Positions 1 through 17,799 of a DNA stretch of 17,799 nucleotides are shown piece by piece; positions within the stretch are counted from its first letter, which is position 1; each line of letters starts with the position of its first letter. The DNA comes from a virus, in the UHGV virus genome UHGV-1847153; one strand, given 5' to 3'. The position numbers and the translations under genes are program-made. Below the pieces are notes generated by a model that had not been told where the DNA came from, did not search any database, and saw only the letters and a list, made by a program, of their open reading frames with translations.

Positions 1-47
1 CTACACAGAGTAGATCGTCGGCAGCGTCAGATGTGTATAAGAGACAG
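1..47. other. Synthetic Illumina Nextera library adapter (P5 tail CTACAC + i5 index AGAGTAGA + read-1 adapter TCGTCGGCAGCGTC + Tn5 mosaic end AGATGTGTATAAGAGACAG); not genomic
   Basis: Exact string match: 1-6 CTACAC, 7-14 AGAGTAGA (recalled as Nextera i5 index N504/S504), 15-47 TCGTCGGCAGCGTCAGATGTGTATAAGAGACAG. The ORF-track Met at 31 lies inside this adapter. Confidence 0.9.
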
Positions 48-48
48 G

Positions 49-831
49 ATATCGAGAATGCCGAAGACGAAGCGCCGCCAGGCATCGGCGAACTTGGCGA
101 CAAACCGCCAGAGTCGCCAGGCGGAGATCCGATATCGAACGAGCCTACGGCAGATAGCGCGGGCGGTCGGGGATATCGTAAATGGGCGCTACGATGGTTC
201 AAACGATAGCGTCACCGAAATAATGGATGCGCTGGAGCGCTACAGCGAAATCATCACCCCCTGGGCGACGAAGGTAGCTGAGAACTTCACCGCAGACATA
301 GCGCGCCAGAATGAAAAGCAGTGGCGTCAGCACAGCCGGAACATCAGTGCAGAGCTGCGCAACATGGTTGACCGCGCCCCAGTAGGTCAGGTGATGAAAT
401 CCATCGTTGCCGAGCAAATTAAGTACATTAAATCGCTCCCTCTTGAGGCCGCCGATCGGGTGTATGACATTCAGAACAAGGCCATCGAGGCTGTAGTAAC
501 TGGTGGCCGCGCTGAGCCATTCGCGAAAGAGATAGCTGCTTCCGGTGACGTGTCACGCTCACGAGCGAACCTTATCGCCCGGACTGAGCTTGGGCGCGCA
601 ACCGGTGCACTGGATCAGGCGCGTGCGCTGTCAATCGGCTCGAATGGTTATATCTGGCGTACAGCCGAAGATGGCGACGTCCGGCATTCTCATCGAGAGA
701 TGGAAGGGAAGTTTGTCGAATGGGGCCGACCTCCAACGCTTGACGGCATGACCGGTCACGCTGGCGAGCTCCCGAACTGCCGCTGTTACAAAGAAATCGT
801 CTTCCCCAACCCTCATTCTTATCTCGCCTGA
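49..831 (+). CDS. Phage head morphogenesis protein, Mu F-like / SPP1 gp7 family; 5' end not defined (contig edge)
   Basis: C-terminal region has the motif pattern I recall for the Mu F domain (SRANLIARTELGRA...GYIWRTAEDGDVRHSHREMEGKFVEW). The frame is open from the adapter into the gene; the first in-frame ATG in genuine sequence is at 58. Stop TGA 829-831. Position immediately upstream of scaffold/capsid genes. Confidence 0.6.
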   Translation: MSRMPKTKRRQASANLATNRQSRQAEIRYRTSLRQIARAVGDIVNGRYDGSNDSVTEIMDALERYSEIITPWATKVAENFTADIARQNEKQWRQHSRNISAELRNMVDRAPVGQVMKSIVAEQIKYIKSLPLEAADRVYDIQNKAIEAVVTGGRAEPFAKEIAASGDVSRSRANLIARTELGRATGALDQARALSIGSNGYIWRTAEDGDVRHSHREMEGKFVEWGRPPTLDGMTGHAGELPNCRCYKEIVFPNPHSYLA

Positions 832-7447: not shown

Positions 7448-7873
7448 ATGGAATTCGAAATTAAAGGCGTGAAATATCGCACCGCAAAGCTCAGCGTTTT
7501 CGAACAGCTGAAGGTGTCCCGAAAGCTGTTGCCGGTGCTGGCCGGGATGGTTTCTGACTTCCGGAGCATTCAGGAGAAGATCAGCAGCAAAGACACCGAA
7601 GGCGCGATGGCTACCATCCTGCCAAAGATTGCCAATGCTGTGTCCGATCTGAGTGATGGCGACGTGGACGCTATCCTGTTCCCCTGTCTTTCCGTTGTTT
7701 CACGCGAGCACATGAAAGGCTGGGTGCCGGTCTGCCAGCATGGCGAAATGGCGTTTGACGATATCGACCTGCTTACCATGCTGCAACTGGTGGCGCGGGT
7801 GGTCGCCGACTCGCTGGGAAATTTTTTGCAAGGACTCCCTACCAGCGAGACGCCCACCCCGCTAGCGGAATAA
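7448..7873 (+). CDS. Tail assembly chaperone (zero-frame product, lambda G analogue)
   Basis: RBS GGGGAG 7433-7438 before ATG 7448. Directly upstream of the tape measure gene. Contains a slippery run near its 3' end with an open -1 frame extension. Confidence 0.6.
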   Translation: MEFEIKGVKYRTAKLSVFEQLKVSRKLLPVLAGMVSDFRSIQEKISSKDTEGAMATILPKIANAVSDLSDGDVDAILFPCLSVVSREHMKGWVPVCQHGEMAFDDIDLLTMLQLVARVVADSLGNFLQGLPTSETPTPLAE

Positions 7874-8061
7874 CCTTCAACAGCCTGCCGGGCGGTGAAG
7901 ATTTTATTCTTCGCCCGGCGCTTGCCTTCCATATTGACCAGAAAGACCTTAACAGCGGTGCGGTAGACCTTTGCCGCATCGCGCTTCTCAATGACTACCT
8001 CGACATGCGCGAGGATAACGACGCCCGGGTAGATAAATGGAGAGCGGCCAATGAGCGGTAA
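7448..8061 (+). CDS. Tail assembly chaperone -1 frameshift fusion product (lambda G-T analogue); joins zero frame 7448 to about 7822 with the -1 frame to 8061
   Basis: The -1 frame downstream of the slippery run is open for about 80 codons (...KFFARTPYQRDAHPASGITFNSLPGGEDFILRPALAFHIDQKDLNSGAVDLCRIALLNDYLDMREDNDARVDKWRAANER) and ends 10 nt inside the tape measure gene. The chaperone frameshift upstream of the tape measure gene is a conserved feature of long-tailed phages. Confidence 0.5.
7816..7828 (+). other. Candidate -1 programmed ribosomal frameshift site: GGGAAATTTTTTG, overlapping slippery heptamers G_GGA_AAT, A_AAT_TTT, T_TTT_TTG in the chaperone zero frame
   Basis: Zero-frame codons CTG GGA AAT TTT TTG read directly. 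The -1 frame is open from 7759 to the TAA at 8059-8061. Confidence 0.5.
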
Positions 8062-12684: not shown

Positions 12685-12738
12685 ATCAATAATCGTTGAT
12701 CTCGCGTTTTTATTATGCACTAATCTGTACATGTACAG
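12685..12738 (+). promoter_or_regulatory. Candidate promoter/operator of the TA cassette: -10-like TATTAT (12711-12716) and 14-bp perfect palindrome CTGTACATGTACAG (12725-12738) directly upstream of the antitoxin RBS
   Basis: One of only two sizeable intergenic gaps in the window (12667-12748). Palindrome read directly. -35 element is weak or unclear, so promoter placement is tentative. Confidence 0.35.
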
Positions 12739-12748
12739 AGAGGGTGCC

Positions 12749-13162
12749 ATGAAAATCATTACTTACACGCAAATGCGATCGGATTTATCTGCAACGCTGG
12801 ACTGTTTACGCTCTGGTGAAAGCGTCACAGTTACGCAGCGCGGAAAGCCCGACCTTGTCATCAGTGCAAAATCAGTTGATGAAATCGCTTCCGCAGATGA
12901 GGTAAAAACATCTGCGAAAACAATAGACACGCATCTTGCGCAATTAATTGCATCGAATTTGTCACCACAGATAACGGAGGGTGTCATGAAGCTTACTAAG
13001 CAATTGGATGCCCTTCTTCAGTCTGATGAGGCTCGCCAGACTATGATGAAGGCCACTAATGCAGCAGTTGCTTTGCAGGGCGTGTCTGAGTCATTTATCA
13101 AAGCTCTGCAACATACTCAGACCAAGCATGCGGACATCATAAAAAAACTGGAAGATAAGTAA
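12749..13162 (+). CDS. Phd/YefM-like antitoxin with an unusually long C-terminal extension (137 aa)
   Basis: RBS GAGGG 12740-12744 before ATG 12749. N-terminus (MKIITYTQMRSDLSATLDCLRSGESVTVTQRGKPDLVISAKSVDE) resembles the Phd/YefM fold pattern recalled from P1 Phd. Stop TAA overlaps the doc ATG (TAATG) at 13160-13164. Internal in-frame GGAGGG-ATG at 12976-12988. Confidence 0.6.
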   Translation: MKIITYTQMRSDLSATLDCLRSGESVTVTQRGKPDLVISAKSVDEIASADEVKTSAKTIDTHLAQLIASNLSPQITEGVMKLTKQLDALLQSDEARQTMMKATNAAVALQGVSESFIKALQHTQTKHADIIKKLEDK

Positions 13163-13569
13163 TGACTGAGATTACATTCCTTTCGGTAGATGAGGTCATC
13201 GCTATTCAGAAGAGCACATTGCCAAATAGCGGACAACCAGACCGGGGAAAACTCGAAGGTGCCCTCAATCGCGTCGATAACTTACGCATGTATGAAGGAT
13301 GTGAGGATTTATTTAAATTTGCAGCTATGTACATGGTTGCGATAGCGAAGTCTCACGCTTTTAATGACGCCAATAAGCGAACGGCTTTCCAGGCCGCCAG
13401 CGTGTTTTTGCTTTTGAATGGCTATGAACTGAATACCTCAATGGAGTTAGTCAAGCTGACCATCTTTGCTGCTACGGGAGAGGCCGACTGCGATAACACT
13501 GCTTTGGCGCTTAAACTTTTGTCAGATTATAAGAATGAGCTGCTGGCAGATACGATAACTGGCTACTGA
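13162..13569 (+). CDS. doc: Doc (death-on-curing) family toxin, Fic fold
   Basis: Intact Doc signature HxFxDANKR (SHAFNDANKRTAF, codons 13354-13380). Overall pattern closely resembles P1 Doc as recalled (DLF..A.Y.VA.A..H.FNDANKRTA....FL..NG...........L...ATGE). 135 aa. Translationally coupled to the upstream antitoxin. Confidence 0.8.
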   Translation: MTEITFLSVDEVIAIQKSTLPNSGQPDRGKLEGALNRVDNLRMYEGCEDLFKFAAMYMVAIAKSHAFNDANKRTAFQAASVFLLLNGYELNTSMELVKLTIFAATGEADCDNTALALKLLSDYKNELLADTITGY

Positions 13570-16598: not shown

Positions 16599-17362
16599 TG
16601 GCAATAAACAACTTTAAACCTTTCGCGCTTGATCCGAACGCTAACGTCACCTCACAAGCTGACTGGGAAGCACTTCCGGCTCTGCTTTCAGGGTTTACGG
16701 CAGGTAAAGCATCCAGCGCACAGGTCAACAAAGCTATTCGGCAAGCCAGCTTTATCGCGGCAGCGTTGGCGCAGTACACCGCCAACAAAAGCAGGCTGGA
16801 TGTGCTTGATGATGGAGACCTGAACGGGTTTATATCCAAAATGGGGACCGCTTTCGGGAAAGATTTCCAGGCGCTTGACGCCACGCTGACGGCATTGGCT
16901 GGTCTAGCAACTGGTGCAAATAAACTCCCGTATTTCACTGGAACTGATAAAGCAGCTCAGACTGATTTAACTTCTGTTGGCCGTGACATTATTGGGAAAA
17001 ATACTATTGCTGACATTCTCACATACCTTGGTTTGGGAGAAGCGGCGAAAAGGAATGTGGGGACTGGGGCGAATCAGATACCTGATATGTCATCATATGC
17101 ATCAGGTTCAGGCTGGCGAAAAATGCCAGATGGTTCAATTGAACAGTGGGGACGAATTAGTTTTCCTGGTGAACACGGGCCTGTATCCGCCAATGTTTCA
17201 TTCCCGATTCCATTTACACAGACACCGGGCATTGTAATTGTGTGCGATGGTGGTTTCGGGGGCGGGAATATGTGGGGGGCGACCAACTGGAGCACTACCG
17301 GCTTCATAGCTCACTGCAATTATGGTCTTGAAGGTGGTGCGTTTTTCGCTAAGGGCTGGTAA
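16598..17362 (+). CDS. Tail fiber protein (short; conserved N-terminal anchor plus divergent lower-GC C-terminal receptor-binding part)
   Basis: RBS GGGGGA 16583-16588 before ATG 16598 (TAATG overlap with upstream stop; ORF-track Met 16580 rejected). N-terminus [18 protein letters not shown]... resembles tail-fiber N-termini. Followed by an assembly chaperone gene. Confidence 0.65.
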
Positions 17363-17799
17363 TGATGAAATATCTGTACGTAAACAACCTGGCATATCCT
17401 TACGAACTTCAGTCTCTTTATGTTGAAAAAGGTGAATGGCCTGAAGAAAAAGGTGTTGATATAGACGAAGTAATTTTCAGGGAATATTTCTATGATACAC
17501 CACCAGAAGGAAAATACAGATGTGTCGGAGAGGATGGACTGCCTGCATGGGCAGATATTCCTCCACCAACACGTGAAGAACAAATTGCATCAGCCGAAAC
17601 TAAAAAGCAGCAATTGATTAACCAGGCCAACGAATACATAAACAGTAAACAATGGCCAGGTAAAGCATCAATTGGTCGTCTGAAAGGTGAGGAACTGGTG
17701 CAATATAATTTGTGGCTGGATTATCTGGACGCACTGGAGCTGGTCGATACTTCCAGTGCACCAGATATTGAATGGCCGGAAGAACCAGACACAATGTAA
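17362..17799 (+). CDS. Tail fiber assembly protein (Tfa chaperone)
   Basis: Overlaps the fiber gene stop (TAATGATG). 145 aa. Typical Tfa-like sequence ([39 protein letters not shown]...) and position. Stop TAA is the last three bases of the window. Confidence 0.7.
   Translation: MMKYLYVNNLAYPYELQSLYVEKGEWPEEKGVDIDEVIFREYFYDTPPEGKYRCVGEDGLPAWADIPPPTREEQIASAETKKQQLINQANEYINSKQWPGKASIGRLKGEELVQYNLWLDYLDALELVDTSSAPDIEWPEEPDTM

Follow-up and report, generated by a model that had tools for sequence, protein, structure and literature searches.

How much of the left end of the window analysed here, which comprises the whole 17,799-nt stretch of the UHGV virus genome UHGV-1847153, belongs to a phage at all, which gene is interrupted by the contig edge and where does the first complete gene begin? 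A preliminary description of the sequence had identified bases 1-47 as a P5 tail, an i5 index, a read-1 adapter and a Tn5 mosaic end. The Nextera i5 index primer was rebuilt by joining P5, an 8-nt index, TCGTCGGCAGCGTC and the 19-nt mosaic end, and the suffixes of the primer were matched against the prefix of the window. The first 47 bases as read, CTACACAGAGTAGATCGTCGGCAGCGTCAGATGTGTATAAGAGACAG, proved to be the final 47 nt of AATGATACGGCGACCACCGAGATCTACAC + AGAGTAGA + TCGTCGGCAGCGTC + AGATGTGTATAAGAGACAG on the plus strand, all 47 positions being exact. Over these 47 nt the window is like the Nextera / Nextera XT i5 primer N504, with the blocks in canonical order, in terminal position and pointing inward, except that the P5 segment of the primer is 29 nt long whereas the window has only its last 6 nt. 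The blocks, all on the plus strand, are the P5 flow-cell tail CTACAC (1-6; also printed in PMC5861650), the i5 index AGAGTAGA (7-14), the Nextera read-1 adapter part TCGTCGGCAGCGTC (15-28, exact match) and the Tn5 mosaic end AGATGTGTATAAGAGACAG (29-47, no mismatches), inside which lies a spurious ATG at 31-33. Index N504/S504, i.e. AGAGTAGA, was the sole fit among the eight classic i5 indexes tried, the other seven giving no match. The identification also finds support in the oligo table of PMC5861650, where the P5, index and Tn5-A blocks are the same; its entry i5_N504 reads AATGATACGGCGACCACCGAGATCTACAC-AGAGTAGA-(UMI)-TCGTCGGCAGCGTCAGATGTGTATAAGAGACAG, a 10-N UMI being placed between the index and TCGTCGGCAGCGTC. 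The 47-mer is present in a single copy in the window, with 0 mismatches; its chance expectation, even allowing up to 3 mismatches, was 0.00 in 200 dinucleotide-preserving shuffles of the window, and the probability of finding it by chance at a fixed position is 4^-47 (about 5e-29). The reverse complement of the mosaic end, the read-2 adapter, P7 and TruSeq sequences were absent across the window, including its right end, at up to 2 mismatches. The adapter at 1-47 is thus confirmed, exactly as first described, and it is an artefact. NCBI adapter/vector screening is made to flag contamination of this kind, and the 47 nt have to be trimmed before any submission.

This window is a textbook case of a widespread artefact, present in several phage genomes of GenBank and in no fewer than 120 IMG/VR contigs. 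The 33-nt core of the adapter was found in at least 120 IMG/VR contigs and, among the copies listed, 118 out of 121 are terminal and point inward, the length of the synthetic stretch ranges from 33 to 71 nt with a mode of 46-47, and the 8-nt slot varies, as filled by different i5 indexes, with AGAGTAGA occurring at least 13 times. Megablast searches further retrieved unrelated GenBank phage records (Vibrio, Bacillus, Acinetobacter and Escherichia) which match the window at 1-47/65 only. One of them is Escherichia phage ESSI2_ev129 (LR597640.1 / NC_049394.1), whose genome is unrelated to the window and which carries the identical 47-mer (100%) at the end of the record. The adapter also stands at the genome ends of ev207, ESSI2_ev015, the Vibrio phages JSF5/JSF6 and Bacillus phage Maceta. 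In two further records it is internal, at 22688-22744 in Acinetobacter phage TAC1 and, beneath a CDS for a long tail fibre, at 149732-149795 in Escherichia phage vB_EcoM_WFK, unlike in our window, where it is only terminal; these internal copies suggest misjoins. A literature search on adapter contamination returned generic method mentions only.

The limit between synthetic and genomic DNA can be placed with the help of the relatives of this phage. Positions 1-2100 of the window match about 340 E. coli chromosomes, and in addition a set of phages, at 87-98% nucleotide identity in megablast, the phages being Citrobacter phage Omnitron, Salmonella phage SEN34 (Brunovirus), Hafnia phage yong1 and the vB_EcoM-606R2 group. 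The alignments of these relatives all begin at query base 43, through a gapped chance match, and ungapped identity starts at 46. At the junction the relatives read ...ACCGACGAG|GATATC and the window ...AGAGACAG|GATATC, so that only AG at 46-47 coincides, by chance; the full mosaic end reaches base 47, and homology to the relatives stops at the junction of mosaic end and insert. The exact 54-mer at 48-101 was recovered in 64 IMG/VR contigs and one E. coli locus, the adapter being absent from all 65, and in 65 out of 65 the sequence upstream is the portal gene ending in ...ACCGACGAG. A 41-mer spanning the junction had no match in the metagenome contig collection searched. The homology break and the upstream portal continuations thus bear out the previous placement of the first genomic base at 48, and since every one of the 65 relatives runs on into the portal gene, the left end is, as had also been claimed, an assembly terminus and not a biological boundary. 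That the 47 nt would instead be a genuine genomic feature, e.g. one end of a Tn5/IS50 element that had inserted naturally into the prophage, is practically out of the question, because the 19-mer at 29-47 does resemble the Tn5 ends but is exactly the engineered mosaic end (0 mismatches) from which the natural outside and inside ends differ at 3 and 4 positions, respectively, in place of IS50 it is flanked by the P5 tail, a catalogued index and the primer site of Illumina read 1, it sits at position 1 pointing inward like the 118 of 121 copies in the listed adapter-tipped contigs, and none of the 65 relatives examined carries the 47 nt upstream of base 48.

In Nextera libraries read 1 begins directly after the mosaic end, and the i5-side adapter enters reads only when read 2 passes through a short insert, in the order reverse-complement mosaic end, read-1 site, index and P5. 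Judging from this library design, read 2 probably continued past the end of a short insert into the adapter; such reads, left untrimmed, would have brought in the i5-side Nextera adapter, which the assembler would then have added to the contig end. Read length or k-mer branching at the shared adapter are possible reasons for the extension ending after 47 nt. Given that bases 1-47 are a synthetic adapter, base 48 would therefore be a Tn5 tagmentation site and not the end of a genome, i.e. the trace of one Tn5 cut made 159 nt before the portal stop codon in a SEN34/Omnitron-like temperate myovirus of Enterobacteriaceae. We infer that the left end of the window is a true contig end, which should not be taken as a phage terminus, a pac/cos site or a prophage boundary. 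The best explanation overall, to which we assign a probability of about 0.97, is that of an adapter at 1-47, a tagmentation site at 48 within the 3' end of the portal gene and a head-morphogenesis gene which would be intact from the ATG at 58.

The adapter has a direct consequence for gene calling. The open reading frame called at 31..831 translates as MCIRDRISRMPK..., and its ATG at 31-33 is located inside the mosaic end (AG-ATG-TGTATAAGAGACAG); the earlier statement that its apparent start was translated adapter therefore holds. It is because this mosaic-end ATG happens to be in frame with an open ORF that an ORF finder reports a 266-aa protein with 9 unreal residues. The nine spurious codons (31..57, plus strand) encode MCIRDRISR, which precedes MPKTK... 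in the translation, with 31-47 being adapter and 48-57 being genomic DNA upstream of the real start. The gene-position index searched held no record of the exact 266-aa artefact protein MCIRDRISR..., which should not be deposited.

What the contig edge interrupts, judging from the C-terminus of the encoded protein, is the portal gene, which the preliminary description did not mention. Frame 3 of the plus strand reads from base 48 through the last 53 codons of this gene to a TAG at 207-209, and the translation of this 3' remnant (48..209; DUF1073 / Phage_portal_3), DIENAEDEAPPGIGELGDKPPESPGGDPISNEPTADSAGGRGYRKWALRWFKR*, is the C-terminus of the 488/489-aa portals annotated in E. coli ABWA45 and phage SEN34. 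The portal domain itself would lie upstream of the contig end and the remnant was thus assigned through this C-terminal match: the annotated DUF1073 portal gene ends 168 nt (ABWA45) and 165 nt (SEN34) into the matched region, and the portal tail is identical to that of the window in a Pantoea stewartii prophage (L068) and differs at one residue in E. coli ABWA45. The tail is of low complexity, acidic and rich in Pro and Gly, and it ends in a conserved W-x-L-R-W-F-K motif. Because frame 3 of 48-209 is the portal C-terminus, the gene cut by the edge would be that of the portal and not the head-morphogenesis gene.

The latter is found directly downstream of the portal gene, in frame 1 of the plus strand, and encodes a head-morphogenesis or minor head protein of the Phage_Mu_F, SPP1 gp7 family. 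Its matches to PF04233 (65.3 bits; cut-off 29.6) and TIGR01641 (43.7 bits; cut-off 39.65) are both above the curated cut-offs; PHROG 324 (head morphogenesis) aligns with residues 5-255, and other head-morphogenesis PHROGs align from residues 21-26, residues being numbered throughout on the 257-aa product that would start at ATG 58. The start codon was assessed in 19 diverse relatives with 52-100% protein identity, ranging from Escherichia to a Cupriavidus MAG (L085). The equivalent of ATG 58 is ATG in all 19 and it is the sole codon before residue 60 with a start in every one of them. Apart from the Cupriavidus MAG, every relative (17 sequences) has a GAGGA motif 9 nt upstream of this codon; its place is taken by the adapter in the window, where AGGA alone remains, by chance. 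Sequence comparisons with more remote phages extend the picture. In tblastn searches against phage genomes the alignments begin at residues 17-22 in distant phages, with identities of 52% for Klebsiella ST340-VIM1phi10.1, 44% for Acinetobacter A785.1, 42% for Burkholderia vB_PL1 and about 25% for Jedunavirus-type Klebsiella phages. In both vB_PL1 and Klebsiella phage HHU1 the annotated minor head protein includes the N-terminal region; in HHU1 the annotated gene starts at the conserved helix and is separate from the portal gene, and in vB_PL1 residue 21 of the 251-aa minor head protein (42% identical) aligns with residue 22 of the window protein.

The preliminary description had left two options for this gene, either truncation by the contig edge or a start at ATG 58, and it is the second which stands. 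A true start upstream of base 48 is very improbable, even if frame 1 is open back to base 1 in the window and some distant relatives have additional in-frame ATGs 15 or 45 nt upstream. Such ATGs are not conserved, and in the relatives L067, L068 and L070 the frame meets a stop two codons upstream. Each of 72 close relatives carrying the 54-mer has a frame-1 stop located 30-66 nt before the ATG, and in 71 of them no ATG, GTG or TTG lies between the two. Because the frame is closed at this short distance in the 72 close relatives, the start should not be sought upstream of 48.

The opposite possibility, a start farther downstream, is the one adopted by most public annotations. The family is mostly annotated as a 202-aa form from the equivalent of ATG 223 (223..225, plus strand), the codon of the internal Met56; some records give a 245-aa form from the equivalent of TTG 94, and vB_EcoM-606R2 has a still later start yielding 176 aa. 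The three choices have in common that they lessen or avoid the overlap with the portal gene. Prodigal forbids same-strand overlaps of more than 60 nt. Accordingly to the 202-aa form, the upstream part of frame 1 would be open by chance and 48-222 would contain the portal tail alone. This start has been annotated in RefSeq/GenBank for E. coli ABWA45, ECONIH5 and WEM25, phage SEN34 and Hafnia phage yong1, and given the portal amino acids frame 1 would indeed be open by chance with a probability of 10-90%. Since an open frame is not unusual under these conditions (P 0.1-0.9), no weight was given to the head-morphogenesis frame being open. Several other observations nevertheless make ATG 223 an improbable start. 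Its equivalent is ATG in 14 of the 19 relatives and is not a start codon in the other five (ATT in three, ATC and GAA in one each), and no purine-rich stretch is visible upstream of it in the sequence contexts of the relatives compared. Moreover, distant homologues include the upstream region, some of them with little or no portal overlap, and the annotated starts differ between records (202, 245 and 176 aa). Selection on the upstream codons was evaluated by Nei-Gojobori counts on codon alignments, using as null the non-coding alternative frame in sliding windows of 25 codons. For the phase of the head-morphogenesis gene this null, taken from the portal-only region, was 1.77 with a minimum of 0.78 over 126 windows. 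The dN/dS of frame 1 upstream of ATG 223 is 0.13 at residues 26-50 (nt 133-207), as against a null of at least 0.78, and 0.11 in the rest of the gene. At nt 61-132 it is 0.71, which is weak and marginal with respect to the null minimum of 0.78, so that in this first half of the overlap it is the conservation of the start codon and not dN/dS which carries the case for ATG 58.

Two further leads were tried and discarded. TTG 94 (residue 13), the start of the 245-aa form in some NCBI annotations, is a start codon in 12 of the 19 relatives only. L082, a remnant of a Pantoea stewartii prophage that lacks a portal ORF, was considered as an independent test of the N-terminus of the head-morphogenesis protein and was uninformative, because it is a deletion remnant still carrying portal-tail nucleotides.

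Start-codon conservation, the GAGGA motif, the upstream stops, the dN/dS values, the PHROG and tblastn alignments and the vB_PL1 and HHU1 annotations all support a complete head-morphogenesis gene at 58..831, predicted to encode 257 aa. The peptides AVGDIVNGR and YDGSNDSVTEIMDALER, the latter spanning Met56, belong to this protein. Many of the public start annotations of the family are therefore probably too far downstream, leaving the proteins short by 12-81 residues, and the correct model of the locus would consist of a truncated portal gene and an overlapping, complete 257-aa head-morphogenesis gene.

With the start at ATG 58, positions 58-209 would form a 152-nt out-of-frame overlap, shared by 50 codons at the end of the portal gene (frame 3) and 51 codons at the beginning of the head-morphogenesis gene (frame 1). 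Both frames are open across it in 19 out of 19 diverged relatives, and in 18 of them the portal stop falls within a few codons of the same place, being slightly later in the Cupriavidus MAG; as these relatives share ancestry, neither the counts of open frames nor those of conserved positions are independent trials. When the codons of the head-morphogenesis gene were resampled synonymously, the portal frame remained open in 1-15% of the resamplings (median about 4%) for the 18 enterobacterial-type sequences, and in a fraction of 0.46 for the high-GC Cupriavidus MAG. For the portal frame, dN/dS amounts to 0.59 over the first half of the overlap and to 1.02 over the second, compared with 0.07 in the rest of the portal gene; both values are below all 185 windows of the corresponding null (minimum 1.21, median 2.6). 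In the head-morphogenesis frame, in turn, pS is lowered in the overlap (0.39 vs 0.66). Our reading of these data is that the portal tail would be translated, kept open and only loosely constrained, the head-morphogenesis frame probably dominating in the second half of the overlap, and we infer that both frames are translated in vivo.

It could be argued, on the contrary, that the portal tail at 58-209 is an evolutionary read-through devoid of function, with selection acting on the head-morphogenesis frame only and no dual coding. We regard this as possible, though rather doubtful. The portal-frame dN/dS values, close to 1.0 for the second half and 0.6 for the first, together with the low-complexity, acidic and Pro/Gly-rich composition of the tail, are what such a read-through would leave behind, and a long overlap is not found in Burkholderia phage vB_PL1, whose portal is 54% identical and whose portal and minor head genes overlap by 4 nt only, vs 152 nt here. 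Such a read-through is, however, difficult to reconcile with a portal frame that is open and ends similarly in 18 of 19 relatives when 1-15% would be expected per sequence, with dN/dS values below those of all 185 null windows (minimum 1.21), with the depressed pS of the opposite frame or with the conservation of the terminal W-x-L-R-W-F-K motif. On balance we lean towards dual coding: the overlap appears to be conserved across a widely distributed clade of prophages from enterobacteria as well as in a Cupriavidus relative, selection would act on both frames, and automatic annotation regularly avoids the overlap. The gp7 protein of SPP1 binds its portal, and the overlap could therefore couple the synthesis of both partners. 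A literature search on SEN34 or on an overlapping portal/head-morphogenesis pair yielded nothing relevant.

Beyond its left end, the window is collinear throughout with the structural module found in Omnitron-like and E. coli prophages (95-97% identity over 78-89% of the length), and comparison with these relatives gave no sign of chimerism across it. The remnant of the portal gene is followed by the genes for head morphogenesis, DUF2213, cement, major capsid, neck, sheath and tube proteins and the chaperone, and then by those for a tape measure with an SLT domain, the baseplate, the tail fibre and tail-fibre assembly. The SEN34-like phages (Brunovirus), Omnitron and the E. coli prophages have the same portal/minor-head gene order as the window, with 88-98% nucleotide identity over 43-2100, and the translation from Omnitron is 100% identical to the 257-aa head-morphogenesis protein; the difference lies in the public annotations, which start this gene at the equivalent of 223, 94 or later and not at that of ATG 58. 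The exact DUF2213 protein of the window is widespread in records. In some E. coli relatives an integrase gene comes right after DUF2213 (L001, 5237-6466; L086, 2881-3266, cut by the end of the locus; L213-L215, 4436-5665) and replaces the cement and major-capsid genes, with HVO_A0114/TumE-like genes further downstream in L214 and L215. This subset suggests either an element inserted in the head module of the prophage or a truncated prophage.

Some minor observations concern the tail genes. In the region 7448-8051, about 180 nt separate the tail assembly chaperone gene (Phage_TAC_15) from that of the tape measure; a tiny DUF6889 ORF is annotated in this gap in relatives, at the usual site of a programmed frameshift product of the chaperone. 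Within the baseplate module, an ORF at 12731-13162 resembles Phd/YefM antitoxins (28.3 bits, just under the Pfam cut-off of 29.8) and is followed at 13162-13569 by an ORF for a Fic/DOC-family toxin, both making up an accessory 'moron'; E. coli WEM25 has a reverse-strand DUF4236 gene at this site instead. On the right (17362-17799), homology to the relatives ends at 17777 and the window finishes exactly at the stop codon of the tail-fibre assembly gene (Caudo_TAP). Here too the assembly may simply have broken off, at a region that is invertible or repeated. Beyond this point the relatives carry a second gene for tail-fibre assembly in convergent orientation, an alternative C-terminus of the tail fibre and a recombinase, an arrangement which suggests an invertible tail-fibre segment.
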